From positions 1 through 64,000 of the IMG/VR virus record IMGVR_UViG_3300012984_000016: 64,000 bases of DNA, one strand, 5' to 3'. The notes below the pieces were generated by a model that was given only the letters and a program-made list of their open reading frames with translations, did no database searches and was not told where the DNA came from. The translations under genes were made by a program, and so were the position numbers. Source of the DNA: a virus. Each line of letters starts with the position of its first letter. Position 1 is the stretch's first letter. Shown one piece after another: positions 1 to 64,000 of this stretch.

Positions 1-151
1 ACATCGTCCAGGTCTCGCCCGGGTTGACGTTGCTGTCGATCCACGAGCGAGCGTTGTTGGACGCCTCACTGTTGTCGGAGCCGAACAGGATCTTGGTGTC
101 ACGGACCTCACCCTGCGGGGTCTCGATCGTGACCTTCATTCGTGCACTCAT
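1..151 (-). CDS. hypothetical protein (runs off the window edge)
   Basis: ATG at 151 (MSARMKVTIETPQGEVRDTKILFGSD...) with GGAGG upstream, open to position 1, preceded by a promoter-like motif. Confidence 0.6.
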   Translation of the reverse strand, partial: MSARMKVTIETPQGEVRDTKILFGSDNSEASNNARSWIDSNVNPGETWTM

Positions 152-192
152 GACACAGCCTCCCTGCTGCTCGTGCGTACGTTCGTGGAGGC

Positions 193-221
193 ATTGTACC
201 CGGCCCAGCCCGTTGTGAAAC
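193..221 (-). promoter_or_regulatory. putative early promoter (leftward)
   Basis: reverse complement reads GTTTCAC...CCGGG-TACAAT, matching the motif repeated elsewhere. Confidence 0.55.
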
Positions 222-325
222 TGTGGCCCAAGGGTGAAACTTTCCAACATTCACGCATGGGTGTGTATCTCGCCTGCGTACAATAAAGGATGTGCAGGGG
301 ATCCGAACATCACACAACGTTAGGT

Positions 326-355
326 GTTTGTACGGGCTGCCAGTGCGGCATACTG
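326..355 (+). promoter_or_regulatory. putative early promoter of the amidoligase gene
   Basis: GTTTGTA-N16-CATACT upstream of the RBS and ATG at 407. Confidence 0.4.
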
Positions 356-406
356 ACAACGTACGACAGCCGGAGCGACCGGCACTCACCTAGCAGGGAG
401 GCTCAG

Positions 407-1294
407 ATGAGGAAGTTCGGCATCGAGGTAGAGTTCGGGGGTGACATCCCGCGCGCTATCAACCAGATCAACCAGGCGGGACTGTCCAACCGGACCGGTC
501 AGGTGGGCTACCTGACCCACGACACTGATGGGTGGGTCGTCAAGACCGATGCGTCAGTGTACAACGGTGGTGAGATGGTCGGGCCCCCGCTCGACTTCGA
601 CAACCCCGACCAGCGGGCACAGGTGACTACTGCCATCGAGGCTCTCGCTGCCTCTGGCGCAACCACCAACGAGTCCGCAGGCATCCACGTCCACATCGAC
701 GCGAGTGACCTGACCCCCGAGCAGATCGCCAACGTTGCTCGATGCTTCGTCAAGTTCGAGGATGTCATCTACCGCGTGGCGTCCTCTGGGTGGCGGAACA
801 TGCGCCCCGAGGCCCGTCGGTACGCGTACCCCTTGACCCACGAGCGGGTCAGCAAGATCGCCAAGGCGAAGGACCTCCCCACCCTTGCGCGAGCCTGGTA
901 CGGTCTCCGTCCCGGACAGGACCACTCGTACTCCGCACGTGACCACGGTCACGGCAGCCGCTACTGCGGTCTCAACCTTCACTCGTACTTCTACCGTCAG
1001 ACCATCGAGTTCCGGATCTTCAACTCGTCTCTCAACCCTGAGCGAGTGCAGGCCTACATCGCGATGTGCGTGGCGATCGTCGAGGATGCGCGACGTGGCA
1101 ACCGTCGCTCGTTCAACAAGCGCTACGCCCTGGGTGGCATGAAGTCGGGTGACACCTCGGACAAGGCAGCGTACCACCGCTTCCTCCAGGTCCTCCGCTA
1201 CAGCGCCGACCTGTCACTCGAAGACATGGGTCGCCTCAACAAGGTCTGGAAGGACTCCGTCCCCCAGGAGTACTTCTCCAGCCCCGCGTACTGA
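407..1294 (+). CDS. putative amidoligase (COOH-NH2 ligase family)
   Basis: FGIEVEF N-terminus, W..KTDAS...GGEMVGPPL, AGIHVHID, RYCGLNL, TIEFRIFNSSL; GGAGG RBS before ATG 407. Confidence 0.85.
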   Translation: MRKFGIEVEFGGDIPRAINQINQAGLSNRTGQVGYLTHDTDGWVVKTDASVYNGGEMVGPPLDFDNPDQRAQVTTAIEALAASGATTNESAGIHVHIDASDLTPEQIANVARCFVKFEDVIYRVASSGWRNMRPEARRYAYPLTHERVSKIAKAKDLPTLARAWYGLRPGQDHSYSARDHGHGSRYCGLNLHSYFYRQTIEFRIFNSSLNPERVQAYIAMCVAIVEDARRGNRRSFNKRYALGGMKSGDTSDKAAYHRFLQVLRYSADLSLEDMGRLNKVWKDSVPQEYFSSPAY

Positions 1295-1315
1295 CAAGTC
1301 CACCCAGGCTTGAGC

Positions 1316-1344
1316 GTTTGCACTGGACGCTCGCCGGGTACAAT
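1316..1344 (+). promoter_or_regulatory. putative early promoter
   Basis: GTTTGCA-N16-TACAAT with GGG before the -10 box. Confidence 0.6.
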
Positions 1345-1375
1345 ACATCCAGACCTACTGCAAGGAGACCGTACC

Positions 1376-2512
1376 ATGTGTGGCATCTTCGGTATCGCCT
1401 ACGGCCCCAAGGGGCCCGAGGGTGAGGAGTGGACTCCCGAGGAGTTCGCTCGGCTGATGTTCCCCGCGATCGAGCACCGTGGCCCTCACGCCTGGGGCTA
1501 CATGTACTGCAACTCGGACGCCGACACGATCGAGTGGGTGAAGACCCCTGGGTCGTGCAAGGCCAAGGGTGCCATGGACACCGTCGAGATCCCTGGCGAC
1601 GTGAAGTGGCTCGTGGGTCACGTCCGCTACGCCACGGGTGGCGAGAAGGCTCACCCCCGGTACAACCGGAACAACCACCCGATCCCCCACGGTGACATCG
1701 TCGGCGTCCACAACGGGGTCCTGCGGAACTGGCAGGGCATCCTGGACAAGACGGGCCGAGAGGACATCAAGAGCGGCGTGGACTCCGAGGCCATCTTCGC
1801 AGCGATCAACAAGTGGGGCATCCGCCCTGGGTTGCGCAAGATCGAGGGTGACATGGTCGCGGTGTGGGCCAACGTTGAGGAGCCGGAGGTCCTGCGGATC
1901 GCCCGCCTGGACGGACGACCCCTGGTGTACGCCACCACCGAGGCGGGATCCCTCATCTTCGCATCCGAGCAGGGTGTGATCGACGAGTGCCTCATCAAGC
2001 ACGGGCCGTACCACGACCTGGAGGACAAGACCAACTGGTTGATGACTGTCAAGCAGGGCAAGGTCTCCGAGCGTTCGCAGTACGCAGAGCCGATCAAGTC
2101 CTGGGCAGCCTCCGAGCGGTCCGGTCCGGCCCCGTCCTACTCCGGCGGCAGCCCGTTCCGGTCCTCCGTCCAGGACGCCTGGCCCATCGACAACCCGCTG
2201 TGGGATCCCCGAGGGATCACGGACCGCATGTCCGGGCAGCCTCGTCGGTACGGTCGCACCGGAGCCACTGCACCCAGCAGTGACGCCGTCAGCACATCCC
2301 CCACGCCTCACGGTGTGCCCGATCAGAAGATCAACCAGGTGGACGAGTTTGGTGGTTATTACATCGGGCAGAATACCTGGCAGGTGCCTGGGGGCGCTCT
2401 CCTGAACGCCACCCAGTACGTCAAGTGGGCCGTCCGCCGTGAGGTGAAGGCCCTGATCGAGTCCGGTGACATCGGTCTCGACGAAGCACTGACCCAACTC
2501 GAGATCGACTAG
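1376..2512 (+). CDS. class II (Ntn) glutamine amidotransferase
   Basis: MCGIFG N-terminal nucleophile Cys, HRGPHAWG, GHVRYAT, NNHP, HNGVL, VDSE, FASE; AAGGAG RBS. Confidence 0.9.
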   Translation: MCGIFGIAYGPKGPEGEEWTPEEFARLMFPAIEHRGPHAWGYMYCNSDADTIEWVKTPGSCKAKGAMDTVEIPGDVKWLVGHVRYATGGEKAHPRYNRNNHPIPHGDIVGVHNGVLRNWQGILDKTGREDIKSGVDSEAIFAAINKWGIRPGLRKIEGDMVAVWANVEEPEVLRIARLDGRPLVYATTEAGSLIFASEQGVIDECLIKHGPYHDLEDKTNWLMTVKQGKVSERSQYAEPIKSWAASERSGPAPSYSGGSPFRSSVQDAWPIDNPLWDPRGITDRMSGQPRRYGRTGATAPSSDAVSTSPTPHGVPDQKINQVDEFGGYYIGQNTWQVPGGALLNATQYVKWAVRREVKALIESGDIGLDEALTQLEID

Positions 2513-6999: not shown

Positions 7000-7439
7000 C
7001 AGTTGTTCACCGCCGCCTGCACGAGGTCGTAGAACTCCACGGCCCGCGCCTCGGCGTCCTCGTACGAGATGTCGGTGGTCCCACGCAGCGGAGGCGTGAT
7101 GCCGTACTTCCAACGAATGGTCTCGCGGTCACCAGCCGGAGCGAGCGAAGCCTCGTACATCTTGTTGGGCTGCTTCTGCTCCATGACCCACACGTACAGC
7201 GCCTTGAAGATTCCTTCGTCGCGGCGGTTCGGGATGGTCCACAGCATCATCGTGGTGAGGCAGGTCTTCACGCACTCCAGGCACGGGGTGCCCCGCAGTC
7301 CGTGGAAGTAGAAGAACGACACCACGTTGTTGCCGGGGTCGATCGCCACTGCCACCTCAGCCGTGGGGTCGATGGACGTTGAGGTCTGCTTCTCTTCGTA
7401 CGTCAGGAACCGGAACTCGGTACCAGCGTGGCCGCTCAT
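6999..7439 (-). CDS. putative GNAT-like acyltransferase
   Basis: 146 aa; MLWTIPNRRDEGIFKALY resembles GNAT motif A (h-V-x-P-x-x-R-x-x-G-I-x-x-x-L). Confidence 0.45.
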   Translation of the reverse strand: MSGHAGTEFRFLTYEEKQTSTSIDPTAEVAVAIDPGNNVVSFFYFHGLRGTPCLECVKTCLTTMMLWTIPNRRDEGIFKALYVWVMEQKQPNKMYEASLAPAGDRETIRWKYGITPPLRGTTDISYEDAEARAVEFYDLVQAAVNN

Positions 7440-8758
7440 CGCAGTCCCTTCTTCCTGATCTTCCCGGCTGGGCTCATAGGCAATGATCCCACCTTGGTCA
7501 TGGTCTTGGGCACAGCGTAGTGCGGAACCCAGGACCGCACGTACTCCAGCACCTGCGCCTCGGTGGCGTCTCCTTCGTAGAACCCCTGCACCTGTTGGCC
7601 GGTGCGACGGTCCGACACTCCGATGACTGCGGCGGCTCGCACTCCCGGATGCGTGAGCATGGCTCGCTCGACTGAGGTGGCGTACACCGTGTTGCCGTTC
7701 ACCAGGATCTTGTCCGAGCGCCTTCCTTCGATTACCAGTTCGCCGTCAGTAACACCCACGTAGTCTCCGGGTGCCACCCACTTCGGCATGTCCTGGATGC
7801 CAAGGAAGCCGATCTTCTTGTTCGCCGTCGAGTCCCCTCGCACGGAGATCTCACCGATGCCTGACTCGTCCGAGTCGATGCGCACCTCGATCGCATGGAA
7901 CGCAGCACCCACTGACCGAGTCGGCTCAGTGATCACCTTCGCAGAGATGAGCCCGCACTCAGTGGTCGCGTACAGGTTGACCAGTGCTACGTTCGGGAAC
8001 TGGCGCAGCCACTTCTCCTGCAACTCCATCGGCAGGTCGTTGCTGGACGAGTGGATCATGCGGAGCGACGGGAAGGTGGCCGAGGAGAAGCCCGCCTCGA
8101 TAAGTGAACGAATGATCGTGGGCCCCGCTGCTGCCATGTTACACCCATGGCGGTTGACCACCTCGGCGAACACCTGCGGTGTGACCTTGCGCTGGTCGAT
8201 GACCATGGTTGCTTCGTTCAGTGTGGTAAGCAGACCTACGATCGTCGCTACGCCGACAGCGAACGGAGTGCACACGAACACCCGCTGCCCACGGGAGTAG
8301 CCGTACTCGTACAGGTCGAGGTCGCGGCAGTACCGGGTCATCCTCGTGAGGTTGTGGCTGAAGATCTTCGGCCGACCCTCGGTCCCGGACGACCCGAACA
8401 TCAGCGCGCCGCCGTACTGGGAAGCAGCAGGGGACGATCTGGCGAGGTTCTGGGCGTACTCCGGGGTGCTGGGGTCCAGGCACCCGGTCCCGACGCCCAC
8501 GACCGCCCTGGCACGGGCCGTGCGTTTGATCGCTGAGCGCGCCATGCGAGGCAGGAAGCCGGGGAGCGGGAGGGCTGCGCGACCGGACCGCGCCACGCCC
8601 ATGAACAGTTCGTACGACTCGAGACGGTTGTCTGTTGTGACCGCTACGACCGAGTGGGGCGGAGCGATGTCACCTATGACTGATGACACTGCTCGGATCC
8701 GCTCGTCGAGTTCCGCTGCTGTGAGTGAGCGATCGCCCTCGACGATCGCTGGGGTCAC
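7436..8758 (-). CDS. AMP-binding (ANL superfamily) adenylating enzyme, acyl-CoA ligase-like
   Basis: P-loop SSGTEGRPK, NLYATTE, PGD, GRRSDKILVNG..VYATSVE, terminal PMSPAGKIRK catalytic Lys. Confidence 0.9.
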   Translation of the reverse strand: MTPAIVEGDRSLTAAELDERIRAVSSVIGDIAPPHSVVAVTTDNRLESYELFMGVARSGRAALPLPGFLPRMARSAIKRTARARAVVGVGTGCLDPSTPEYAQNLARSSPAASQYGGALMFGSSGTEGRPKIFSHNLTRMTRYCRDLDLYEYGYSRGQRVFVCTPFAVGVATIVGLLTTLNEATMVIDQRKVTPQVFAEVVNRHGCNMAAAGPTIIRSLIEAGFSSATFPSLRMIHSSSNDLPMELQEKWLRQFPNVALVNLYATTECGLISAKVITEPTRSVGAAFHAIEVRIDSDESGIGEISVRGDSTANKKIGFLGIQDMPKWVAPGDYVGVTDGELVIEGRRSDKILVNGNTVYATSVERAMLTHPGVRAAAVIGVSDRRTGQQVQGFYEGDATEAQVLEYVRSWVPHYAVPKTMTKVGSLPMSPAGKIRKKGLR

Positions 8759-14612: not shown

Positions 14613-14758
14613 CGGTGTGCCGACTTCACGGTTGCGACATTCGCACAGGTGTGCTTCATCTCCACCCCGTTGACCGTGGTCTTGCGCCAGCCGCACGTGG
14701 GGCAAGGCGCACCCATCCAGACCAACGGAGGGATCGTGGCTGTGCCGACTGCTGTCAT
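14609..14758 (-). CDS. 49-aa CxxC protein
   Basis: MTAVGTATIPPLVWMGAPCPTCGW..., coupled to both neighbours. Confidence 0.5.
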   Translation of the reverse strand: MTAVGTATIPPLVWMGAPCPTCGWRKTTVNGVEMKHTCANVATVKSAHR

Positions 14759-15285
14759 CAGACGCTCACCCCTACCTCGACTGCCTCGCGGAACCTAGTG
14801 GACATCGTGCCGTCGAGGAAGGCGATCAGGGAGGCGACCAGTTCGAGACCGGTCGGCATCTCTCCGTACCCGTAGCCCTCTTCGAGCAGGTGATCGCGGA
14901 AGCACCGCTGGTCGATGGGATCCATAGTGTGAACCATGGCTCCGCAGATTGCCGGCGAAGGCTGCTGCCTGTAGAAACCAATGAGTGATGCCACCAGTTC
15001 GAGTCCTGATGGCACCTCGTGACGGTCGTACCCTTCCTCGATCAGGTAGGTCTTGAACTTCCGCCGCTCCCCTTCTGCCATGCCTCCCCACACGCCGTAC
15101 TCTTCGCGGTGGACCAGCGCACCCTCCAGACACCGAACCCGCTCGACACACGAGAAGCACAATCGCGTGGCCAGGTCCTCGCGGTCGACCCGCCCGTCTT
15201 CCATCCGACCGTCGTCCACGGATGAGAAGAACAACTCAGGGTTGGTCTCGCAGTGGTGTTGTTGTTCCAGGGTGGTTACTGTCAT
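14758..15285 (-). CDS. whiB: WhiB-family transcription factor with duplicated C-terminal extension
   Basis: C..PELFF...CFSCVERVRC...YGVWGG..ER; four Cys. Confidence 0.88.
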   Translation of the reverse strand: MTVTTLEQQHHCETNPELFFSSVDDGRMEDGRVDREDLATRLCFSCVERVRCLEGALVHREEYGVWGGMAEGERRKFKTYLIEEGYDRHEVPSGLELVASLIGFYRQQPSPAICGAMVHTMDPIDQRCFRDHLLEEGYGYGEMPTGLELVASLIAFLDGTMSTRFREAVEVGVSV

Positions 15286-15391: not shown

Positions 15392-16651
15392 CTATGGCCT
15401 AGTGCCGCCGTTAATGTTGATCGTGATCGACAGGCTCACGGTCGGCCCACCCTCGACGCTCGCGGGGAGGGTCACGGAGAACGGCTCCAGCGTCGCCTGG
15501 GCGGCTTCTCCCTGCTCGCCAGCCTCGGGGCTAGGCTCCACGGCGGCTTCGGCCTCCTCGTCCGTCTCCAGGTCGCTGAGTGCCTCGGAGGTCTCCTCCG
15601 GCGACGGAGGCTCGGGCGTGAGGCGCGGGCCGTTGATGAACTCGACCTCGCCCACCACGTCGGACTCGCAGTACAGCGCGGGCTCGAGAACCGACCGGCG
15701 TTCGAAGTCGTACTTCCGCACGCCCACGGTCTTGTGCCCCTGCCAGATGCGCGTGTACTTGAAGAACTCGCACAGCGTGGACTGGATGTTGCACAGCGAC
15801 AGGTCCAGCGGCTCCCCGTCATGGTCGAGAGGCCGGACGAAGGGCAGGTCGCGTGCTGCGAACTCCTCCCGTTGGTGCGCGTGCAGCCAGCGCATGACCA
15901 TGAGCAGGTTCCGAGGCTTCACGTCGGGTGCGAGCATCGCCCACATACCGCTGCGTGCGCCGGGTCCTGCTTGGGCCCACTGGTTCTGACCGTACGGGAG
16001 CACGGGGTCCGGTCCGGTGAGCAAGTCCACCACGATCTGGTGGGCCAGGAACTCGCCGAGGCCGGGGATGTCCTTGAAGACCTTGAAGATGGTCTGCACG
16101 TCCGGAGACGCCTCGACCCTTCGGTGGTACTCGGGCATCATGTCCGCGATCTTCACGAACAGGCGACCGACGTTCTCGATCTTGTCCTCGCCGCCCTCGT
16201 CGTTGTACCCCGCCACACGGTAGGCGTCACCGAAGACCTTGAACACGTCGGAGTCCTGCTCGCGGAGGACCTTGATGAACACGTCCACGTCGTAGTCGTC
16301 CACGGTGGATGCGACCAGCCGGTGCGTGGGCGGCTGGGATCCCATGAGACGGTACATCACGACGTTGAACATCTTGTCCAGGTCGGAGTAGTCGGCGTTC
16401 TCCACGATGGATGACACGACGTACTGCGTGCCGGGATCCAACTCGCGGTAGTTGTTGGTGATGAACTCGGCCTGCAGGATCGGGTCCTGAGTCCAGGGCC
16501 ACTCGCGCTGCATGCACACACGCCGGAACCACACGGCTTGACGTTCGGCCACGAACCGCCAGTACAGATCGTACTGGGTGGGGTCGAAGCAGGTGATGTC
16601 GAAGTCCTTCTCGGCGACGTACCGCTTGACCGAGTCCGTGGCCTCTGTCAT
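15392..16651 (-). CDS. 5-hmdU DNA kinase-family protein (aGPT-Pplase1, helical domain)
   Basis: FVAERQAVWFRR..WPWTQDPIL..FITNNYRELD, GLGEFLAHQIVVDL, GPGARSG, IQSTLCEFFKY. Confidence 0.8.
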   Translation of the reverse strand: MTEATDSVKRYVAEKDFDITCFDPTQYDLYWRFVAERQAVWFRRVCMQREWPWTQDPILQAEFITNNYRELDPGTQYVVSSIVENADYSDLDKMFNVVMYRLMGSQPPTHRLVASTVDDYDVDVFIKVLREQDSDVFKVFGDAYRVAGYNDEGGEDKIENVGRLFVKIADMMPEYHRRVEASPDVQTIFKVFKDIPGLGEFLAHQIVVDLLTGPDPVLPYGQNQWAQAGPGARSGMWAMLAPDVKPRNLLMVMRWLHAHQREEFAARDLPFVRPLDHDGEPLDLSLCNIQSTLCEFFKYTRIWQGHKTVGVRKYDFERRSVLEPALYCESDVVGEVEFINGPRLTPEPPSPEETSEALSDLETDEEAEAAVEPSPEAGEQGEAAQATLEPFSVTLPASVEGGPTVSLSITININGGTRP

Positions 16652-17425: not shown

Positions 17426-18309
17426 GCTGCCTCCTCGAATGCCTTCATGGCCTCGGCCCACACCTCGTCGATCGAGGTGAAGCCCTTGTACGCCTTGCGC
17501 TGCAACTTCTCATCGGACAACTTCTGGACGTGGCACACCTTGTAGAACTGGCAAGTGTCCGCCATGCTCGAACCCAACTTGCAGTCGGGGTGCATGGGAG
17601 GCATGCGCCGCTTCTTCAGATGCGCGTGCTGTTCCTTGAGCCAGGCGACCGCTGACTTCCAGTGGCCGGTGTCGAAGCCCACCGCGAAGCACTTGGTACG
17701 CTGCGTGTCCTTGCAGTCGTACAGCAGGATGCCGTCCTCGATCCCCTTGGCCTTCATGTAAGCCAAGAGTTGGCGGACCGCGTCGTCCTTCGGTTCGTCC
17801 TCGCGGTTGATCCAGTCGAAGCCGCGACGGTTGATGCCCTTGATGTCGATGACGTACAACTTGCCGTGGATGAGCAAGGTCACGTCGAGGTTGCCAGCGA
17901 CATGCCACTCGTCGAGGTGGACGAAGTACTCGATGTCGATGACCTTGAACTTCTCGGGGTCTCCGAACACCGCCTCCATGTCACGGAACAGTGCCTGCCA
18001 CTTGTGGTGTCTCCAGTTGCCGTCGTCGAACAGCAACTCCTTGTCGGGGTTGACCTTGCGCGAGCCCTTGTACCCCAGGAACTTGAGGATCGCCTGGCGG
18101 TCGCATCGGCCGATGGACGACGGGGAGAAGCGACCACCCGGACGGGCCCGCGCCACCATGGAGATCTCATGCGAGCGCACCCGGCCCTTGGCCTTCGGGG
18201 TGTCGCGGATGATCATGTACTCATCGATCAGTGGGCGCAGCGGATCGAGTTCCTTGCTGTGTAGACGCTTGACCATGTCAGCCAGCATCTTGCTGTCGCC
18301 TGGGGTCAC
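17422..18309 (-). CDS. Cas4-like PD-(D/E)XK exonuclease
   Basis: SPSSIGRC, GNWRH, GNLD...IDIK, QLLAYM, C-terminal Cys cluster. Confidence 0.8.
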   Translation of the reverse strand: MTPGDSKMLADMVKRLHSKELDPLRPLIDEYMIIRDTPKAKGRVRSHEISMVARARPGGRFSPSSIGRCDRQAILKFLGYKGSRKVNPDKELLFDDGNWRHHKWQALFRDMEAVFGDPEKFKVIDIEYFVHLDEWHVAGNLDVTLLIHGKLYVIDIKGINRRGFDWINREDEPKDDAVRQLLAYMKAKGIEDGILLYDCKDTQRTKCFAVGFDTGHWKSAVAWLKEQHAHLKKRRMPPMHPDCKLGSSMADTCQFYKVCHVQKLSDEKLQRKAYKGFTSIDEVWAEAMKAFEEAA

Positions 18310-23863: not shown

Positions 23864-25054
23864 TTACTCGGACGGGACGTGCGATGCGAACATCCAGTCC
23901 AGGACTTCGGTGGGAACCTTCTCACCCGTGATCGGGTGCGGGCCACGGAGATGGTCGACCACGTCCTCGTGCCCCTTCTTGTGCCAGCGGTGGTAGTAGT
24001 AGAACCGGGCCTGAGCGAGGCCGAGCACCGGGTCCATGCAGCCGAGGAGGGTGTGCGCCGCCTTGAGGTCGAACCCCTTCTTGTACAGGGTGTGGGCCGC
24101 GAACGCCTCCAGCAGGCCGATCCAGGACACCGGCACTTCCTGGTGCGCGTTGAACAGCAGGGACTCGACCTGATCCCACTCGCACGTGCGGAGTGCCATC
24201 TCGTACGAGCGGACCGACGCGAGCACCTCGTCCGTGAGGTCGGCGGTCTCCCACGTCCAGTGACCACCGAAGCCCCAGCCGTCCTGCACCGCCTGGTACA
24301 GGTCGAACTCGGCGATGTCCTCGGCCTCCGCGTGGTGGTACTCGTAGGCGTGCAGGGAGTCGGCGACGTGCGTGTACGTGCCGACGGGGATGCCCAGGCG
24401 ACCGGCGATGTACCGCTGCATGGACATCCACTGGATGAAGTTGTAGGGCGTGCCCCACATGACATCGTTGGACCGCAGGATCTGCAGCCAGTCCAGGCGA
24501 CCGTCCCGGATCATCAGGTGCGCCATGAGGTTACAGGCGCGGTCCTTGGTCTCGCGGCGGACCTCCTCGAAGGCGTAGTTGTCAGTGTCCGAGGGGACGC
24601 GCATCGGCTGGTACGCCCGGTCGTGCGACGGCAGCGTGATGGTGAGCACGGCCTGGCGGGTCTCGGGGTCCTCGGTAAGCAGGCGGACCACGTCCTCGAT
24701 CTGGTCGTGACCGTGGGCGTAGCGCAGGCGGTAGCCGTACGCCGCGTTGAAGGTCTCACCGTCGTCGGAGTAGTCACCGATCTTGGAGTTGTAGTGCTTG
24801 AGCATCTCCACGTCGTTCTGCCCACCCAGGATCCACAGGACCTCGGCGAAGGCGAAGGTGACGTTGACCGGTCGGCCGAAGGCGGTGACCACCGGGCGCA
24901 GCGGGTCGTCGATGATGATCGTGGCGGGGTGGATCTCAAGGGTGGGTGCCACCCGAGAGGGGACCTGCTTGCCGCCGCCCATGACCGCCGCTACCGCAGC
25001 GGGGTACACGACGTTGGCGTTCGGCCCCTTGATGATCGCTTCGTTGGTGGTCAC
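23864..25054 (-). CDS. thymidylate synthase-fold enzyme, probable dUMP hydroxymethylase
   Basis: AYGYRLR, DPETRQAV, catalytic Cys (RACN), RSNDVMWGTPYN, SLHAY. Confidence 0.8.
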   Translation of the reverse strand: MTTNEAIIKGPNANVVYPAAVAAVMGGGKQVPSRVAPTLEIHPATIIIDDPLRPVVTAFGRPVNVTFAFAEVLWILGGQNDVEMLKHYNSKIGDYSDDGETFNAAYGYRLRYAHGHDQIEDVVRLLTEDPETRQAVLTITLPSHDRAYQPMRVPSDTDNYAFEEVRRETKDRACNLMAHLMIRDGRLDWLQILRSNDVMWGTPYNFIQWMSMQRYIAGRLGIPVGTYTHVADSLHAYEYHHAEAEDIAEFDLYQAVQDGWGFGGHWTWETADLTDEVLASVRSYEMALRTCEWDQVESLLFNAHQEVPVSWIGLLEAFAAHTLYKKGFDLKAAHTLLGCMDPVLGLAQARFYYYHRWHKKGHEDVVDHLRGPHPITGEKVPTEVLDWMFASHVPSE

Positions 25055-25698
25055 TTGGAACCCTCCGGGTAGGTGAAGCCGCGCCGCGTGAGGTGCTCAG
25101 CGATGAACGCGGTGGTCTCGCCCCGGGGAAGGTGCGGGACCAGGATGGTGATGTCCTCGTGGCGCTGGGCCAGGTACTCGTAGTTCTCCAGCACCTGCTT
25201 GTTGTTGCTCTTGTCCTTGGCGAACGGCTCCAGGAACATGAACACGATGTCGGGCATGCACCCTTGCGTGGGCAGCCGAGCGAGGTCGATGAACTCGTCC
25301 GCTGTCATCTGGGTTCGCATGTCCTTGACCCACCCGTAGGCGAAGGTCGAGAACCAGTTGCGATCCAGGAACACCGACTCGGCGTCGGAGTGGAGCCGGG
25401 GTACGATGACGTTCTCGTACATCTCACAGTGTGCCGCAAGGTGCAGGAACTGCCGGGTGAGCGGGAGGTGCTTCTTCCAGTTCACGTCCTCGGTGAGGCC
25501 GTAGATCTTGGCACCGAGTTCCGAGCCGCCGCTGGGCGAGTGCGTGAACACCGGCTTGCCGGAGTACAGGGGCTCGCCCTGCTCGGGCGCGTACACGGCC
25601 CGCTCGAAGCGGTCCATCTGGGTTGACTTGCCTGTGGCGTCCAGCCCCTCGAACACGATGAAGGAGGAGGGCTTGAGGATCAGCGGCAACTTGAACAC
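25051..25698 (-). CDS. tmk: thymidylate/dNMP kinase
   Basis: FEGLDATGKST P-loop, LDRNWFSTFAY, PDIVF. Confidence 0.85.
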   Translation of the reverse strand: MFKLPLILKPSSFIVFEGLDATGKSTQMDRFERAVYAPEQGEPLYSGKPVFTHSPSGGSELGAKIYGLTEDVNWKKHLPLTRQFLHLAAHCEMYENVIVPRLHSDAESVFLDRNWFSTFAYGWVKDMRTQMTADEFIDLARLPTQGCMPDIVFMFLEPFAKDKSNNKQVLENYEYLAQRHEDITILVPHLPRGETTAFIAEHLTRRGFTYPEGSK

Positions 25699-28290: not shown

Positions 28291-28582
28291 GACCGAACTG
28301 CCCGTCTCTGTAGTTGGTGCGTGGACCACGAGTGGACCAGCCACCCTTGGGGATCTTGACTCCAGCGCGCTCGCACTCGCCAGGTCCGGGTACGGTGCAG
28401 AACGCATCGTGGTGGTGGTGCCGCCAGGTCGGGCACTCTTCGGTGCCGGTGCCGTGGTGGCTTCCTGAGTGGCCCCACTGGTCGCGCCCTGCCTTGAGAG
28501 CAGCCTGACGGCACGCGCGGTACTCGTCGATCCTGCCAGCGTTGACAGCCTCGTCGAAGGTCAGCGACTCGATGGGAGTCAT
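28283..28582 (-). CDS. hypothetical His/Cys-rich protein
   Basis: ATGA coupling to the NADAR stop; CPTWRHHHHDAFC. Confidence 0.55.
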   Translation of the reverse strand: MTPIESLTFDEAVNAGRIDEYRACRQAALKAGRDQWGHSGSHHGTGTEECPTWRHHHHDAFCTVPGPGECERAGVKIPKGGWSTRGPRTNYRDGQFGRA

Positions 28583-29043
28583 CGCCACTCCAGGTCGGTG
28601 AGTTCTGCACGGCGGGCCATGAGCAAGGTGCCGAGCCAGTTCAGGCCCTCCCAGCGCATCTTGGTGTTGTTCCAGGTCATGCCCCAGAACTTGTCGCCCC
28701 AGGTGTTGCCTTCGATCAGCCCGTAGTCCAAGGTGTTCAGGACCAACTTGGTGCTGAGGTCGTGAGGCTTCTCCGACATGCCAGGGAACTTGTGGTCCAG
28801 CGCAGTGCGCATCACTTCGAGCCGGTAGTAGTTCCAGTCCCCGCGCATGGTGCACCGGGCCCCGAGACGCTTCGCTTCCTTGGGGGTAGCCGCCTTCCGA
28901 ATCTCCTTGGCCTGCTGCTTCTTCTTCGCCTTCATCGACTGGAAGTAGTGCTCGACCGTGGGGTAGTGCAGCCCGTCGATCTTCATCGGGCTCGGGTGGA
29001 AGTTGCTGAGGAAGGCGTACTCCCCGGTGAAGCGCGTGATCAT
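28579..29043 (-). CDS. NADAR (YbiA-like) family hydrolase
   Basis: FLSNFHPSP, YPTVEHYFQSMK, EAKRLG, KF, LIEGNTWGDKFWG, GLNWLGTLLM..R. Confidence 0.9.
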   Translation of the reverse strand: MITRFTGEYAFLSNFHPSPMKIDGLHYPTVEHYFQSMKAKKKQQAKEIRKAATPKEAKRLGARCTMRGDWNYYRLEVMRTALDHKFPGMSEKPHDLSTKLVLNTLDYGLIEGNTWGDKFWGMTWNNTKMRWEGLNWLGTLLMARRAELTDLEWR

Positions 29044-33872: not shown

Positions 33873-34109
33873 ATGACCACTGGAAGATCGTTGAAGCAGT
33901 GGATCGCCGAGGAGAAGGGTCCGTACCAGGACCACATGACCTCCGGGGAACTCTGCATCTACCTCAACATCAACCCGCGCACCCTGCGTGAGTGGAAGAA
34001 GAAGCCGTGGTTCCCACCACCCGAGGTCATCACAGCCAAGGGTTGGGGACTGTGGTCACCCGATCAACAAACGGCTCTGCTGCGCAGGCGGCTCGGAGAG
34101 GACAGGTAG
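33873..34109 (+). CDS. small HTH (MerR/Xis-like) DNA-binding protein
   Basis: MTSGELCIYLNINPRTLREWKK..FPPP...LWS. Confidence 0.7.
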   Translation: MTTGRSLKQWIAEEKGPYQDHMTSGELCIYLNINPRTLREWKKKPWFPPPEVITAKGWGLWSPDQQTALLRRRLGEDR

Positions 34110-35405: not shown

Positions 35406-36219
35406 GAAGGACAAGAAGGACAAGAAGCCCGCTCCGCTCGAAGGCTCCAAGATCTACTTCAAGCCGAAGGACGGCACGAAGTCCCGACGCGGAGGCATCT
35501 TCCTCCGTGCCATCGACAAGAAGACCTACGAGGTTCAACTCGACGGTGACCCGTTCACCGTATCCGTCAAGGCGGAACAGGTCACCACTTCGAGTAAGAA
35601 CGAGACCCAGGAGGTCCCCGAGATGAGCACCACCACCGCTGACAAGAGCACCACGAAGACCCTCCGCAAGGAGGCCAAGGCGCTCAAGATCGAGGGCTGG
35701 GAGGAGATGTCGCTCGCCGACCTCACCGCCGCAGTCGAGACCGCCCGAGGCAGCAACGGCAAGGCTGACAAGCCCGCCAAGGCCACCAAGGGTGCGGCCA
35801 AGAAGACCACGGCCAAGAAGGCCGCTCCGGCTGCCAAGAAGGCCGCTGCTCCGGCTGCGAAGAAGGCCGCTGCCAAGAAGACCGCTCCGGCCAAGAAGGC
35901 GGCTCCGGCGAAGAAGGCGGCTGCGGCTCCGGTCGAGCCCGCCGCGAACGGCAACCCGTTCAAGCCGGGTACCAACTTCGCGTACATCGCGGACGAGGTC
36001 ATCGCGGGCGGCAAGCGCAGCAAGATGGTCAAGGCGCTCAAGAAGAAGATCGAACTGGCCCCGCGCACGCGAGCCGGTTCGGACTACGACGTGGACGCCG
36101 AACTCGACCGTCGCATCCTGATCGTCGGCCAGACCCTGAAGAACGAGCACAACTTCACGGTCGAGCGCGAGGGTCGCGGCGCGGACGCGACCATCGTCGC
36201 CACCCCTCCGGCTTCCTGA
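35398..36219 (+). CDS. histone H1-like DNA-binding protein with Rho_N/HeH-like motif
   Basis: LRKEAKALKIEGWEEMSLADLTAAV followed by repeated (P)AAKKAA units. Confidence 0.75.
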   Translation: MGKKDKKDKKPAPLEGSKIYFKPKDGTKSRRGGIFLRAIDKKTYEVQLDGDPFTVSVKAEQVTTSSKNETQEVPEMSTTTADKSTTKTLRKEAKALKIEGWEEMSLADLTAAVETARGSNGKADKPAKATKGAAKKTTAKKAAPAAKKAAAPAAKKAAAKKTAPAKKAAPAKKAAAAPVEPAANGNPFKPGTNFAYIADEVIAGGKRSKMVKALKKKIELAPRTRAGSDYDVDAELDRRILIVGQTLKNEHNFTVEREGRGADATIVATPPAS

Positions 36220-36382: not shown

Positions 36383-36453
36383 TCCGGGATCGTCTAATGG
36401 CAGGACACCGGGTTTTGGTCCCGGCTACGCGGGTTCGACCCCTGCTCCCGGAG
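36383..36453 (+). tRNA. tRNA-Gln (anticodon TTG)
   Basis: acceptor TCCGGGA/TCCCGGA, D-arm GTCTAATGGCAGGAC, anticodon arm CCGGG-TTTTGGT-CCCGG, T-arm GCGGG-TTCGACC-CCTGC; no encoded CCA. Confidence 0.92.
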
Positions 36454-36474
36454 CAAGTGCAGTCATCGGTGAGA

Positions 36475-58670: not shown

Positions 58671-59789
58671 TCAGCGGATCGGGACCGTCGGGCCCGGGTT
58701 GGTACCGATGGTCGTCGAGTAGTCCAGGACGAGGCGACCGTCCTTGAACAGGTTGGCGAACCCGGTGATGATGGAGGCGAACTCGGCCGTCAGTTGACGG
58801 CTGACGATCTTCTCCGACTCCAGGAGGAGCGGCATGGCCGTGAGTTGCACCATGGCCTTGGCGCGGTCGACGAACAGGATCTTCTTCGCGGGCACGTTGG
58901 GGTGCGTGAAGATGTCCTGGCTGGTCGGCAGCGGGTTGCTGAGGTTCAGCGTGACGCCCGACGGCGTGACACCGTTGGGGATCTGCGTCTTCTGGAACTC
59001 CGGCATGGCGAGGATCGACATCGCGTCGTTCTCGTTGACCACCATGACGGTCGAGATGCGACCGATCTGGCGGAAGCGGATCCAGGCCCGCACGATGTCC
59101 TGGTAGGTCAGCGTGTTGGCCGTGGTCGCGCCGATGACGGGAGCCGCCTCGGAACCGTCCGCCTGGTCGCCGTTGATCAGGATGTTGATCGCGTCGACAT
59201 CGAGGTCCCAGCCGAGTTGCTGGCCCAACTCCTCGAAGTAGATCGCGGCGAGGTCGAGCGGGGTGAACATGATCGACTCGTAGGTCTGCTTGAGACCGCG
59301 AGCCTTCTTCTTGATCGTGACCTGCTTCTCGGCCCAGGTGATGATCTGGCCCTCGGGGATGGTCGCGCCCTCGTTCACGTCGCGAAGTTGGACCTCGCTC
59401 TTGAACGACGAGACCGTCGAGAAGTCCATCTTCGGCATCGTGAGGCCGGTGGACTCGATGCTCTCCTCCGCAGCGATCAGCGAGCCGTAGAACGGCGCGT
59501 AGTCGAGGCCGCGAAGCACGGCGTCACGGAAGACCTCCGGGAACAGCCACCGGTTGAGTTCGGTGGTGTTGAGCATCTTGTTGACGGTCATGCCGTTCAT
59601 GTCGACGCCGAGTTGGCGGTAGAACGCCTCCGGCGTCATGTCCGCACCGAACGAGTCCGCGAGGTAGGACTTCAGCGTGATGCCTCCGTCGACCTCCTTG
59701 CGGATGCGCTGCAGTTCGTCGTGCAGAGCCTTGGTGTTGAAGTCGGCGTTGACGCCGACCCCCTTGAACTTACCTGCGATGGCAGTCAT
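58671..59789 (-). CDS. major capsid protein (HK97 fold)
   Basis: LFPEV, VNEGATIP, KKARGL..TYE, AINILINGD; GAGGA RBS. Confidence 0.88.
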   Translation of the reverse strand: MTAIAGKFKGVGVNADFNTKALHDELQRIRKEVDGGITLKSYLADSFGADMTPEAFYRQLGVDMNGMTVNKMLNTTELNRWLFPEVFRDAVLRGLDYAPFYGSLIAAEESIESTGLTMPKMDFSTVSSFKSEVQLRDVNEGATIPEGQIITWAEKQVTIKKKARGLKQTYESIMFTPLDLAAIYFEELGQQLGWDLDVDAINILINGDQADGSEAAPVIGATTANTLTYQDIVRAWIRFRQIGRISTVMVVNENDAMSILAMPEFQKTQIPNGVTPSGVTLNLSNPLPTSQDIFTHPNVPAKKILFVDRAKAMVQLTAMPLLLESEKIVSRQLTAEFASIITGFANLFKDGRLVLDYSTTIGTNPGPTVPIR

Positions 59790-59811
59790 GTCTGTGGATC
59801 CTCCTCTCGGA

Positions 59812-60246
59812 TCAGCGGTGGAGCAGGTCGAAGGAGTTGGTCGCGGTGGCACCCGTGAGGGCGATGCCGATGACCTTCTCCGTGGCGGACGGGACGACGC
59901 CCGTGGTGATGGGACGGACGGTGCCCGCCGCGCCGATGACGACGATGTCGCCCGCGACGATGGTGGCGTCCGCAGTCACCTGGTGGACGGCGAAGCCAGG
60001 CACCTCGACGGTGACCTGTCCGCCCGGGTTGCCCACCGGGTAGGTGGTGGAGGTGGCCGAACTGGTCCGCTTGACGTTCTTGACGGACACGCGACCCAGC
60101 ACCTGCTTGGTGCCGGTCGCCTGAACCACCGTGTAGTCAGCGGAGAGTTCGACCCAGTCACCGACATTGGCCGAGTAAGCGACACCCGTGTCCAGCGTCA
60201 GCGCGAGAAGGCCGGTGATCTTGCCACCGGGAGTCTTCGTGGTCAC
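59812..60246 (-). CDS. capsid decoration/cement protein
   Basis: small Gly/Thr/Val-rich protein with IGIAL motif immediately upstream of MCP. Confidence 0.7.
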   Translation of the reverse strand: MTTKTPGGKITGLLALTLDTGVAYSANVGDWVELSADYTVVQATGTKQVLGRVSVKNVKRTSSATSTTYPVGNPGGQVTVEVPGFAVHQVTADATIVAGDIVVIGAAGTVRPITTGVVPSATEKVIGIALTGATATNSFDLLHR

Positions 60247-60291: not shown

Positions 60292-62181
60292 TCAGCCGTG
60301 GAGGCGACGGACGCGAGTGTCCGAGGCCTTGGTGTGCTGCTCGACGCCGTCCGGGATGGTCCCCACGGTCTTCTCGTGCGGGTCCGACTGAGCGGACGAC
60401 CGACGGACGGCGCGGGGGAACTTGGCGCGAGCCAGGTTCTTGTTCTCGTCGATCAGGGTCTTGACCAGTTCGACGTTGTCACCGCAGGCTTCGAGGATCT
60501 TCTGGAACGAGTCCACGGGGACACCCTTGTCGGTGCCGTCGGTGTGTGACTTGACGTACCAGTCGATCGCCTCGGCCTGCAGCGACTTGATGTACTCGTC
60601 GCCCATCTCGGCCTTGGGAGTCAGGTCGGAGACCTGCTTCGCCAGGGTCGAGTTGGACTCGGAGGCGGCGGTCAGGATGGCGAGAAGGCCGTTGTCACCG
60701 TCCTCACCACCCGCCGCTGCTGCGATCCACTCAGCGGGAACCTTGGCTGCGGTTGCGGCAGCCAGAACGGTCTTGCGACTCACGGTCTTCACTCCCTCCT
60801 GTGCATCGGGCTTGTCGGTGGTGTCCTCGTCCTCGTCCGAGGGCTCGTCACCCTCGGTTGAAGCGTCCTCAGCCGCGTCAGCGGCGTCGGTCACTTCCGA
60901 GTCGGGGCCACCGTCGACGGCAGGGTCTTCTCCGTCGGAGTCGTCCCCTGCGCCACCGACTGCGTCGTCTTCCGACCCCCCTTGCTCGTCGGCACCGAGT
61001 GATTCGCTGCCCCCGTCTTCTGGGCCCCCACGCTGCGCTTCGCCATCTGCATCCACCTCCTCTGTGGCTTCGAGAGCCTCGTTGTCGAGGTCCTCGTCGT
61101 CTTCGTCACTGGCCTCCTTGCCGAGGCACAGCGGCTCGTTGTCGCCCGGTGCGAACCGCCACACGAGCGAACGGTCGTCGACCCACTTGAGGGCACCGTC
61201 CTCCTCGCGGGTGGCACCCTTGGCGAGGGCTGCACGGACCTCGTCCGGCGTGTGCGGCATCTTGAAGGCCGAGGCCTCCTGGGACGACAGGCCGAGGAGC
61301 GGGGCCTTGGAGGCACTCGCTGCCTTGATCACGCCGTCGATGCCCGCACCCTTGTCGAGCGAGGCGTAGAACTGAGCCCCGAGGAACACCTGGCTCAGTT
61401 CGTAGAAGTCCTTGGCACCTTCCATCTTGCCCATGGCCTTGACGACGCCCTTGTCGGACGGCTGGCGCTCCATGGGGTAGCCGTACGAGTCGGTCTCGTC
61501 GGAGTTGGGGTCGTAGTACGAACCCTTGACGTGGCCCTCGTCGCACACGGACCAGCCCCACATGGTGTGCATGGTCTTCGAGCAGATGGAGCAGTTCATC
61601 GCGTCGAGCATGACGCCGACCGACACGGCCCAGTTGATGCCGAAGTCGATCGAGTTGATGAGCGCCTCGTTCTCCGGCGTGCGAGGGATGTACACCTCGT
61701 TCGTCAGGAAGGTGGCGTCGATCGCCTTGCCCTCGGCGTCGGTCACGTCGTCGCGGACCCCGGTGCCGAAGATGCGAGCGACCGGCATGCCCGAGTAGTC
61801 GTGGCCGGTCATGTACGACTTGCCGGTGGGACCGTAGGGCTCGGGCAGCGCCGCGAACTCCCTGATGGTCTCCTCGGTGAAGAAGTCGTCGTCACGGTCG
61901 GGGAGGGTGTTCGCCGACAGGGTCTCGAACACCGCGACCTGGTCCGCCGTCTTCGGCGAGAGGGTGAAGGTGTTGATGCGAGCGAGTTGCTCGTCCGTGG
62001 GGGTCTTGAGACCGCCGATCGCTCCGACCGACGAACCCGACCCGCCGCCCTCGGCGTCCTTCGCGTGGAACAGCGTGACGCGCTTGTCGACGGCCTTCTG
62101 GCCAGCGGTGACGGCGCGGGCTTCTGCGAGGGTGTCAGCAAGGGGCTGCGACTTGGCCTGCTTGAGAGTCTTGTGCTTCAC
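60292..62181 (-). CDS. capsid maturation protease-scaffold fusion
   Basis: DRDDD, VSVG, CSIC..C.H, YELSQVFLGAQ; acidic linker; helical C-terminus. Confidence 0.75.
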   Translation of the reverse strand: MKHKTLKQAKSQPLADTLAEARAVTAGQKAVDKRVTLFHAKDAEGGGSGSSVGAIGGLKTPTDEQLARINTFTLSPKTADQVAVFETLSANTLPDRDDDFFTEETIREFAALPEPYGPTGKSYMTGHDYSGMPVARIFGTGVRDDVTDAEGKAIDATFLTNEVYIPRTPENEALINSIDFGINWAVSVGVMLDAMNCSICSKTMHTMWGWSVCDEGHVKGSYYDPNSDETDSYGYPMERQPSDKGVVKAMGKMEGAKDFYELSQVFLGAQFYASLDKGAGIDGVIKAASASKAPLLGLSSQEASAFKMPHTPDEVRAALAKGATREEDGALKWVDDRSLVWRFAPGDNEPLCLGKEASDEDDEDLDNEALEATEEVDADGEAQRGGPEDGGSESLGADEQGGSEDDAVGGAGDDSDGEDPAVDGGPDSEVTDAADAAEDASTEGDEPSDEDEDTTDKPDAQEGVKTVSRKTVLAAATAAKVPAEWIAAAAGGEDGDNGLLAILTAASESNSTLAKQVSDLTPKAEMGDEYIKSLQAEAIDWYVKSHTDGTDKGVPVDSFQKILEACGDNVELVKTLIDENKNLARAKFPRAVRRSSAQSDPHEKTVGTIPDGVEQHTKASDTRVRRLHG

Positions 62182-62186
62182 CTCGA

Positions 62187-62315
62187 TCAGCCCTTCTTCT
62201 CGACGCCGCGTCCGCCGAACTGCTTACCGGGCGGTGCGGGCTTGACAGCGGTGGACCCCGAGTCGTCACTCTTGGGTGACTGCTCCTCGGGGGTGTCCTT
62301 CTTGTCCTCAGCCAT
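62187..62315 (-). CDS. 42-aa hypothetical protein
   Basis: AGGAG RBS before MAEDKKDTPEE. Confidence 0.5.
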   Translation of the reverse strand: MAEDKKDTPEEQSPKSDDSGSTAVKPAPPGKQFGGRGVEKKG

Positions 62316-62361
62316 GTTCACTGCTCCTATCATGAGACACAACGCCGCGCTAACAGTGAAC

Positions 62362-63867
62362 CTAGGAGTTGTCGGGCGGGTCTTCGAGGTCTGTGATTGT
62401 ACGGTCGAGGCTGGCACTGCGGTTGTTCTGGTTGTCCGCCTTGCCTCCACCGTCGTCGCCCAGGGCGTCGTTGGTGTTGGAGTTGCCACCGTTCTCGAGC
62501 AGCGGTGACTCGGGAGGCTCGGTGTACTCGGTCTTCACGTCCGCGAAGCCGAGACGCTGAGCCATGTCCTGCTGGTTCGTGATGCCCGAGGCCCACAGCG
62601 TGAGTTCGTTCTTGATTTCCATCGCCAGGGACTGAGCCATCTGCAGGCGGTTCAGGGTCTTGTTCTCGTTGAACTGGATCTTGACCGAGTCCACTCGCAG
62701 GCCCTGCAGATCCAGCGCCAGGCGGTAGCCCGCCTCGATCATGCGCTTGACCGCCTGCTGGTACTTCTTCGTGTTGCGGATGATGATGTCGTACGCCACC
62801 CCGGCGTAGGTCTCAGTCGTGGAGTACGACCGGCCCTGCACCGACGGCATGGACTTCAGGCCCGAGAAGATCAACTCCTCGTTCTGCTTGAAGATGTTGG
62901 TGGCTCCGGCAGCGTTGCCAGCCATGGACTGCGTCTTGACTTCCACGTCGTTGTAGTGGACCAGACCGCCGTCCCGCACCATGTCCTCGGTCGCGTCGAC
63001 GTAGGACTCCAGGAAGGCGCTCGCACGCGCTGCGAAGTCCTCGTCGGACTCGCCGGGGAGGGGCTGGAGTTGCTCGACCGACACGTCGATCATGGCCAAC
63101 AGGCCGATCTTCTTGACGATCTGGGACATGTTGGCGATCATGTCCTTCTGGATGCCGATGTTCATCAGGGCCGCGACGAACGGCGGGGTGCCGTACGGTG
63201 ACTCCGGCTCGGCGTCGAATGCGAAGTAGTGGAAGGTGATCGGGTTCAGCCGGATGCAGCCGTTGCGGACCTCCTGGCCCGCGCGCTTCCTGGCGTCCGC
63301 GACCGACAGCGCGACCTTCTGGTACGGCGCGTACTGCTGGATGTCCTCGTCCCAGAAGAACCGGATCGTCTTCGGGTTGATGTCTGCGAAGTCCAGCACC
63401 GTGGTCAGGTCGTCGTCCAGGACCCACTCGCCACACATGGCTCCGTACGTGGCTGCCTGGTCGAGCAACTTGTTGATCAGACCGTCGATGCCGCCGTGCG
63501 AGGCCTGCACTGTCTGGGCCAGGGTTTCGAGGTACTCCTTGGCCTTGCGCTTCTGCAGGTCCGAGCCCGCGTCCACCATGAGTTCGTGGCCGGAGTTGGC
63601 CAGGGTCCGCACGTTGTCCACGGCCTGGCTGTAGTCCGGGTTGTACGTGGCGAGCAACTCGATGTAGTCGAGGATGTCCCACGGCATGAAGTAGCCGAGC
63701 GGAGCGTACGAGTCGAACAGGCCCTTGACCTGGCCGTAAGCGCCGGTCTGGGGACCCAGGACCGCCGAGGTGATGGGCGACTTGGCCCCGCGAGCGCCGC
63801 TCTGGGCACGCTTGCCGGTGGGCGCTTCCCCGGGGTGAATCGGGTGCACCTGCCCATTACCAGCCAT
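62362..63867 (-). CDS. portal protein
   Basis: 501 aa, first gene of the head module; GEWV, INPKTIRF, SPYGTPP. Confidence 0.8.
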   Translation of the reverse strand: MAGNGQVHPIHPGEAPTGKRAQSGARGAKSPITSAVLGPQTGAYGQVKGLFDSYAPLGYFMPWDILDYIELLATYNPDYSQAVDNVRTLANSGHELMVDAGSDLQKRKAKEYLETLAQTVQASHGGIDGLINKLLDQAATYGAMCGEWVLDDDLTTVLDFADINPKTIRFFWDEDIQQYAPYQKVALSVADARKRAGQEVRNGCIRLNPITFHYFAFDAEPESPYGTPPFVAALMNIGIQKDMIANMSQIVKKIGLLAMIDVSVEQLQPLPGESDEDFAARASAFLESYVDATEDMVRDGGLVHYNDVEVKTQSMAGNAAGATNIFKQNEELIFSGLKSMPSVQGRSYSTTETYAGVAYDIIIRNTKKYQQAVKRMIEAGYRLALDLQGLRVDSVKIQFNENKTLNRLQMAQSLAMEIKNELTLWASGITNQQDMAQRLGFADVKTEYTEPPESPLLENGGNSNTNDALGDDGGGKADNQNNRSASLDRTITDLEDPPDNS

Positions 63868-64000
63868 GCGGCGCGCTCCTCAGGATTTGACGGGTGTCAT
63901 GCCATTATCTCTTGCGCTTGGACCCAAGAGTCCGAATGACTGCAACTCGGGCTCCGGCGATGGCTGCGACGCCCGCAACTTTACCGGCTCCCAGTTGAGT

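Follow-up and report, generated by a model that had tools for sequence, protein, structure and literature searches.

Restriction-site avoidance in phages was reportedly described by Sharp in 1986, and Staphylococcus phage K is without GATC. The avoidance of short palindromes has been surveyed in virulent phages with double-stranded DNA (Rusinov et al. 2018, BMC Genomics 19:885, PMC6286503). In phages of the M6 and ViI type, the thymidine is hypermodified, starting from 5-hydroxymethyldeoxyuridine (5-hmdU) (Lee et al. 2021, PMC8989533), and the modification sits mostly on T in TG and TC steps. Here we analyzed the virus record IMGVR_UViG_3300012984_000016, a single contig of 74,305 bp with 64% G+C that was recovered from a soil metagenome. 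Its first 64 kb are the stretch from which the study started and are called the window; counts for the genome refer to the whole record. The phage is devoid of the tetranucleotide AGCT and carries predicted genes for thymidine hypermodification, and several other palindromes survive in it only next to T. Its avoidance of AGCT is ordinary in kind, being restriction-site avoidance, and unusually clean in degree.

No AGCT is present on either strand of the window, for which a second-order Markov model predicts 188 copies. The remaining 10.3 kb are likewise free of it, giving 0 copies in the whole genome against an expectation of 214, while the sister words AGCA, AGCC and AGCG occur there 323, 510 and 508 times. 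For a codon-aware expectation, synonymous codons were shuffled 300 times within each of 76 heuristic genes covering 83% of the genome. The shuffled coding sequences contained 193.5 ± 7.8 copies of AGCT (minimum 169), compared with 0 observed (z = -25). This null is conservative, because it draws on a codon pool that is already depleted. About 39 further copies are expected in the 12.4 kb outside the called genes, and none is present. The remaining 4-bp palindromes showed observed/expected (O/E) ratios of 0.7 to 1.2 under the codon-aware null. An earlier note, made from the letters of the window, had claimed a strong avoidance of AGCT next to common GATC, TCGA, GTAC, CCGG and GGCC. Both statements were borne out by the counts, the five words being common in the window and the O/E ratio for coding AGCT being nowhere near 1.

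The avoidance works through silent, context-dependent codon choice in all three frames, with the proteins kept. Codon pairs of the type xAG-CTN, the majority form in AGCT-containing relatives, do not occur in the genome. Lys-Leu is written as AAG-TTG (50 pairs) or AAA-CTN (5), Glu-Leu as GAA-CTN (65) or GAG-TTG (26), and Gln-Leu as CAA-CTN (34) or CAG-TTG (4). This is the rewriting that the earlier note had described, and all six of the example positions it named are CAA-CTN pairs. Its proposed enrichment of CAA, GAA and TTG in AGCT-creating contexts was also found: CAA accounts for 90% of the Gln codons before Leu and for 7% before other residues (p = 4e-32), 80 of the 122 TTG codons are preceded by Lys, Glu or Gln, and 65 of the 209 GAA codons are forced. 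In the other frames, Ala is never encoded by GCT after a codon ending in A (0/186, compared with approximately 20% elsewhere), and Ser is never encoded by AGC before a codon starting with T (0/186). The most enriched one-step neighbors of AGCT are AGTT (O/E 1.53) and AACT (O/E 1.74). The major capsid gene illustrates the pattern on a small scale. It contains 5 CAA and 11 CAG codons, and because all five CAA codons stand before CTN, they can be ascribed to AGCT avoidance.

AGCT is one of at least six palindromes purged from this genome. The others, with counts given here and below as observed/expected, are CCGCGG (0/47), GGCGCC (0/49), GCCGGC (1/59), GACGTC (1/42) and ATGCAT (0/11); in addition, ACGCGT is depleted (3/23). 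AGCT was the only purged 4-mer, the scan of 5-mers revealed no purged word, and among all strand-symmetrised 6-mers with at least 25 expected copies, the four purged words were all palindromes.

Relatives were found by portal and capsid searches of IMG/VR. The family shares virion and replication genes (capsid identity 52-70%, DnaE identity 44-55%), and its members have lost different words. AGCT is missing or nearly so from G001 (81 kb, approximately 95% complete; AGCT 0/214, CGCG 1/361 and 16 hexamers purged), G006 (42.8 kb, 58% complete; AGCT 2/136 and 19 hexamers) and L033 (6.4 kb; AGCT 0/18). In G003 (90 kb), 16 hexamers and TTAA (0/13) are purged and AGCT is present. The fragments L005 and L036 lack CGCG (0/43 and 0/58), G004 and G005 (60 kb and 39 kb) are purged of GATC (2/183 and 0/115), and G002 and L002 (73 kb and 17 kb) have lost a few hexamers and have normal AGCT. 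CATG is also among the words purged across the family. On the capsid tree, this genome pairs with the AGCT-normal G002 and L002, G001 groups with AGCT-normal members, and G006 and L033 form a separate pair. The AGCT-free members are therefore not one clade on this tree. Because the purge is confined to palindromes and shifts from lineage to lineage, it points to differing host restriction enzymes. With 16 to 19 six-base palindromes each, the lists of G001, G003 and G006 rank with the most heavily purged that we have encountered at genome sizes of 40-90 kb.

Besides avoiding sites, the phage seems equipped to modify its DNA. Three genes, for a thymidylate synthase (TS)-fold pyrimidine hydroxymethylase, a deoxynucleoside monophosphate (dNMP) kinase and a protein of the 5-hmdU DNA kinase family (Table 1), are predicted to form the front end of an M6/ViI-type thymidine hypermodification pathway. 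The best solved relative of the hydroxymethylase is the CMP 5-hydroxymethylase MilA (5e-25, compared with 5e-10 for ThyA). Its base-selecting position is occupied by Asn, which we take to mark the type of TS-fold enzyme that acts on deoxyuridine monophosphate (dUMP). The enzyme is thus presumed to be a dUMP hydroxymethylase that makes 5-hmdUMP. Homologues of the putative 5-hmdU DNA kinase are present in M6-like and ViI-like phages, and the protein serves as a predicted marker of post-replicative thymidine hypermodification. A 5-hmdU kinase was not found in G001 to G005; this is a weak negative, with which a local tblastn search agrees. Among the proteins of the phage, no finishing enzyme of the amino-acid:DNA transferase, decarboxylase or radical-SAM type was recognised. 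Candidates for this role are an ANL-family adenylating enzyme, encoded in this genome only, and an FkbM-family methyltransferase that is common to G002. The pair of an amidoligase and a class-II glutamine amidotransferase is a further candidate, but it is kept (39-54% identity) in G001, G003 and G006, all of which are without hydroxymethylase and kinase. This pair probably lies outside the thymidine pathway.

The surviving copies of some hexamers follow a flanking rule. All 20 CTCGAG sites in the genome have T directly 5' and/or A directly 3', and the same holds for all 12 CGGCCG sites, six of which have both. The survivors of both words are scattered and independent. We then screened all 60 non-AGCT hexamer palindromes with each of the four flank bases against the codon-aware null, and T was the only base flagged, for four sites. 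Grouped by T directly 5' on 0, 1 and 2 strands, the observed counts were 0, 4 and 6 for CGGCCG (expected 38, 18.8 and 1.7), 0, 16 and 1 for CTCGAG (26.5, 9.8 and 0.8), 2, 5 and 1 for GGTACC (17.2, 8.4 and 1.9), and 1, 7 and 0 for TCCGGA (10.6, 7.2 and 0.8). AGCT, CCGCGG and GGCGCC have no survivors in this genome in any context. Examples of T-flanked sites are listed in Table 1; example positions in the window are 2498, 18107 and 31213.

The rule goes together with the kinase. In the relatives without the pathway, CTCGAG is fully purged (0/62, 0/39 and 0/11), and no site is flagged with T. Two carriers of the kinase family that are unrelated to this phage obey the same rule. In Microbacterium phage Chepli, CCATGG is absent without the flank and frequent with it (0/17 unflanked vs 12/9 T-flanked), and CACGTG and GAGCTC behave similarly. 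In AN14, a phage of the M6 species, this applies to GGGCCC (0/22 unflanked vs 9/13 T-flanked), and also to GCGCGC and GACGTC. With one uniform threshold, T was the base in 10 of the 11 flagged site/flank pairs of carriers, compared with 0 of 8 in six pathway-less genomes (p = 1e-4). None of the 10 T-flagged sites has A as its first letter, which means that a T-A step is never the permissive one. This agrees with the TG/TC rule of the M6/ViI-type modification but is no more than suggestive. No extra conserved context was found upstream of the permissive T. All surviving GGGCCC sites of AN14 are T-flanked, and digestion data exist for this class of site: M6 DNA is resistant to ApaI, whose site GGGCCC contains no T, and the authors credited a flanking TG (PMC6449724 supplement). 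The T-flank rule can thus be read as shielding by a modified thymidine, which is itself predicted from the gene content. A literature search, which was not exhaustive, turned up no paper on such a genomic T-flank footprint. We also considered whether the purge list is the complement of the T-protected sites. In this genome (G000) and G002 together, 3 of 82 sites with internal T were purged, compared with 8 of 34 with no T or T at the edge (p = 0.002). The idea was dropped, since G000 and G002 are sisters and provide one contrast, and the M6-species phage AN14 purges many internal-T sites.

Taken together, it is likely that the phage lineage was selected against an AGCT-cutting nuclease, and that modified thymidine shields some T-flanked sites of this genome but not AGCT. 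What favors an AGCT-directed nuclease as the best explanation is the confinement of the purge to palindromes, together with a purge list that varies between relatives. The selective agent appears to be a host restriction enzyme, and the simplest candidate is a Type II restriction-modification system of the AluI type in the hosts. AluI itself comes from an actinobacterium. A single cut would be lethal, and AGCT could always be avoided without changing a protein, which would account for the loss of all of the approximately 230 expected sites, through silent changes within coding DNA and ordinary substitutions in the non-coding parts. CCGCGG, GGCGCC, GCCGGC, GACGTC and ATGCAT would have been removed by the same process. 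The earlier note had proposed an AGCT-directed host defense; the defense remains the best explanation, and its restriction to AGCT was too narrow, as at least six palindromes are purged.

The modification would divide the sites into two classes. A thymidine derived from 5-hmdU would protect CTCGAG, CGGCCG, GGTACC and TCCGGA when T stands directly 5', and it would give no usable protection at AGCT, where the phage would rely on having zero sites. Digestion data from other phages are consistent with this division. AluI digests the 5-hmdU DNA of SP8 completely (PMC7653180). On the DNA of M6 and ViI its digestion is partial and PvuII and SacI do not cut; SacII cuts M6 DNA completely (Flodman et al. 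2019, PMC6449724 supplement). These data lend indirect support to the claim of the earlier note that the base modification does not block the AGCT-directed defense, and on the genomic side, other sites are tolerated when T-flanked, whereas AGCT is tolerated in no context. Going one step further, the words left in the genome may record how far its thymidine modification protects it, shieldable words surviving with a 5' T and unshieldable words being deleted outright; we put this forward tentatively, as a possibility somewhat short of an even chance. On this reading, AGCT would be unshieldable because a T in front of it creates a T-A step, which this chemistry would not modify, and because AluI-type enzymes would tolerate a modified T at the edge of their site.

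Several points weigh against these proposals. Both the AGCT-specific restriction-modification system of the host and the modified thymidine are deduced from sequence, and the host is known only as actinobacterial. Approximately 35 open reading frames (ORFs) without annotation leave room for a phage-borne nuclease. The words of the form SAGCTS survive nowhere (CAGCTG and GAGCTC, with 27 and 29 expected copies), though the PvuII and SacI sites resist in M6; their survival might be expected if T is modified in T-G and T-C steps, as it is in M6. Moreover, the permissive flank in tTCCGGA is a T-T step and CTCGAG holds an internal T-C step, so a simple TG/TC model is incomplete.

A phage-borne nuclease would imply self-avoidance: the phage would produce a nuclease specific for AGCT but no methylase, for example for degrading host DNA, and would be safe by having zero sites. 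This predicts a total absence of sites too, and the unannotated ORFs include four of 269-473 aa. However, searches of Pfam, PHROGs and NCBIfam showed neither a restriction-type nuclease nor a DNA methyltransferase, and the genes common solely to this genome and the AGCT-free G001 encode a cupin-like protein and a peptidase. One of these shared genes, at 18306-18803, was considered as a nuclease gene and rejected, as it falls into a cupin/'cysteine dioxygenase'-type PHROG without a solved relative. The Cas4-like exonuclease and the resolvases of the phage are also present in AGCT-containing relatives, and one nuclease cannot account for five other unrelated palindromes or for the long, differing lists of the relatives. 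We therefore regard self-avoidance as improbable.

Even less probable is a purely mutational origin, in which a host AluI-type C5-methylase and the deamination of 5-methylcytosine would erode AGCT to AGTT or AACT. The enrichment of exactly these two neighbors agrees with it, as does the fact that the commonest replacements, CTG by TTG, GAG by GAA and CAG by CAA, are C-to-T changes on one or the other strand. A mutational bias, however, yields depletion and not 0 of approximately 230 sites. In the Ala frame it is the T that changes (GCT to GCC, GCG or GCA), and in place of AGC, Ser is encoded by TCN; the use of whichever route keeps the protein indicates selection. Nor would a mutational origin account for the T-flank rule or the other purged sites. 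That a modified motif was systematically mis-called, or that assembly or masking produced the absence, has next to no probability. The sequencing platform is not on record, and modified motifs cause systematic errors on some platforms, but an error process cannot arrange several types of substitution that are always synonymous. In addition, two other studies yielded independently assembled soil contigs that match the window exactly over the pieces they cover, and three relatives from other samples show the same absence of AGCT. Selection by an AGCT-cutting nuclease, most simply that of the host, thus remains the preferred reading.

The tRNA-Gln(UUG) gene of the phage could be connected to the avoidance of AGCT, in addition to the selection by a nuclease and not in place of it. 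As the earlier note had stated for the window, the only tRNA reads CAA, and this holds even for the whole genome. The tRNA is intact, with U1:A72 and G73. If kept or acquired because avoidance forces the use of CAA, it would be a secondary, cost-saving device for 35 forced CAA codons. In line with this, CAA use depends on a following CT, and 34 of the 86 CAA codons are forced; in the capsid gene, 5 of 16 Gln codons are CAA and none of them is free. Gln-Leu is written with CAA in 35 of 39 cases, compared with 58% expected under the odds ratio of Glu (p = 1e-5). The A-ending route for Gln is taken in 90% of cases here vs 61% (31/51) in the tRNA-less, AGCT-free G001 (p = 0.003), while for Lys (9% vs 43%) and Glu (71% vs 86%) it is less used here than in G001. 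Furthermore, G002, the closest relative, keeps AGCT and is without a tRNA at the syntenic position.

Other observations speak against this link. The AGCT-free G001 (approximately 95% complete) and G006 (58% complete) have no tRNA, and Microbacterium phage Eden has a tRNA-Gln, yet contains 239 copies of AGCT vs 149 expected; co-occurrence of the tRNA with AGCT avoidance across phages thus fails. The numbers of forced TTG and GAA codons are larger, without a matching phage tRNA. Outside Leu contexts, the ratio of the CAA share to the GAA share is approximately 0.55-0.6 with or without the tRNA, indicating no general relaxation of CAA use by the tRNA, and the favorable comparison of routes stems from one genome pair. 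The dependence of CAA on a following CT, which the earlier note had made a test of its idea, held; a functional link between the tRNA and the avoidance is conceivable but rather unlikely. We also tried to connect the tRNA-Gln to the kinase gene in Microbacterium phages, and rejected this because each gene occurs without the other, the tRNA in Eden and the kinase in Chepli. In the D-arm, the tRNA has UCGUC where the general tRNA consensus has UAGCU (positions 8-12). Since this consensus contains AGCT, an AGCT-free phage is restricted in the tRNA genes that it can carry unchanged. The segment directly upstream of the tRNA (36233-36382, + strand) matched no Rfam family at E <= 1.

The phage is a virulent-looking siphovirus from soil, and pieces identical to it are present in soil samples from two other studies. 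Its virion gene set is of the siphovirus type (portal, capsid, tape measure, Dit and tail proteins), and no integrase was found in the genome. It has its own replication genes, for DnaE, a DnaB-type helicase, a primase, RecA, an SNF2 helicase, RuvC-like and other resolvases, and a Cas4-like exonuclease. Other predicted products are a sigma-70-like factor, a WhiB-family regulator and a protein with an Rpf-type transglycosylase domain. Since WhiB and Rpf mark Actinobacteria and the phages that infect them, the host is very likely an actinobacterium. A finer placement was not reached: as a host clue, the tRNA gave weak matches to tRNA-Gln genes of Microbacterium phages only. A megablast search of deposited phages gave no match to the genome, and tblastn with DnaE and capsid detected relatives with at most 35% identity. 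The kinase query had no match in IMG/VR, and the SNF2 query detected one distant fragment in metagenomes. The capsid alignment had no match in bacterial genomes, so neither a prophage nor a bacterial relative was found.

Some further features were noted. Inside the replication module lies a gene for a NADAR-domain protein, common to G003 only. NADAR enzymes reverse the ADP-ribosylation of DNA bases, and the protein may act in counter-defense against DarT-type toxins. Another gene contains a Lys/Ala-rich repeat with AAGAAGGCG-type units, especially at 35800-35925. It resembles the tail of actinobacterial histone-like proteins, and its C-terminal part is 67% identical in G002. At this repeat, the soil contigs show 10-15x local depth, many length variants and loose ends. 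A depth spike in the soil contigs is also seen inside DnaE (22002-22668, about 50 vs 9), where a G>T difference at 22620 is common. The probable cause is a highly conserved segment present in many soil organisms, not a trait particular to this phage.

Table 1. Features of the window discussed in the text, in order of position.
Feature	Positions	Strand	Evidence or remark
Amidoligase + class-II glutamine amidotransferase pair	290..2512	+	
Gln-Leu as CAA-CTC, followed by CTCGAG with A directly 3'	2495..2503	+	T-flank on the other strand
ANL-family adenylating enzyme	7436..8758	-	candidate finishing enzyme
WhiB-family regulator	14758..15285	-	marker of actinobacterial host
5-hmdU DNA kinase family protein	15392..16651	-	PF18723, E = 4e-54; "aGPT-Pplase clade 1" in some phage records
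Surviving CGGCCG	18107..18112		flanked tCGGCCGa
TS-fold pyrimidine hydroxymethylase	23864..25054	-	PF00303; RSND...WGTPYN; Asn at dUMP-selecting position
dNMP (thymidylate-type) kinase	25051..25698	-	overlaps hydroxymethylase gene
NADAR-domain protein	28579..29043	-	PF08719, 2e-26
FkbM-family methyltransferase	33992..34831	+	candidate finishing enzyme
Gene with Lys/Ala-rich repeat	35398..36219	+	
tRNA-Gln, anticodon UUG	36383..36454	+	ARAGORN; Rfam tRNA, 54 bits
Major capsid gene	58671..59852	-	

The purge of AGCT alone is a known anti-restriction footprint, of which this uncultured family of soil actinophages provides one more example. The new detail is the T-flank exemption, which connects the avoidance of sites with the hypermodification of thymidine and is found again in phages unrelated to this one. 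Its presence in two unrelated kinase carriers, one of them with matching digestion data, suggests a sequence-only readout of the context and protective range of the modification. If this is true, word statistics alone could predict, for every phage that encodes a 5-hmdU DNA kinase, the modification context and the defeated host enzymes. The purge list of AGCT, CCGCGG, GGCGCC, GCCGGC, GACGTC and ATGCAT would in turn describe the restriction enzymes of the host, and could help to find it.

Phage-encoded tRNAs that match the codon use of the phage are a general concept. As in such cases, the one intact tRNA here decodes a codon that a GC-rich genome seldom uses and that has become more frequent in the phage. 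Unlike in those cases, the extra demand would come from motif avoidance and not from base composition, and the co-occurrence does not hold in relatives. With M6, ViI, PhiW-14, SP10 and PaMx11, the phage shares a predicted TS-fold hydroxymethylase with the dUMP-type Asn, a dNMP kinase and a 5-hmdU DNA kinase (PMC8989533, PMC6449724). In M6/ViI-type phages, a modified T in a TG or TC step, even one located just outside the site, blocks many Type II enzymes in vitro, and AluI cuts partially. Unlike in these phages, there is no recognisable finishing enzyme here, the predicted host is actinobacterial, and the protective range was deduced from word statistics. As in known restriction-site avoidance, Type II-like palindromes have been completely or nearly completely lost by synonymous choice, and the list varies between related phages. 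What sets this genome apart is that the avoidance occurs alongside a predicted thymidine-hypermodification pathway, and that a part of it is conditional on a flanking T.

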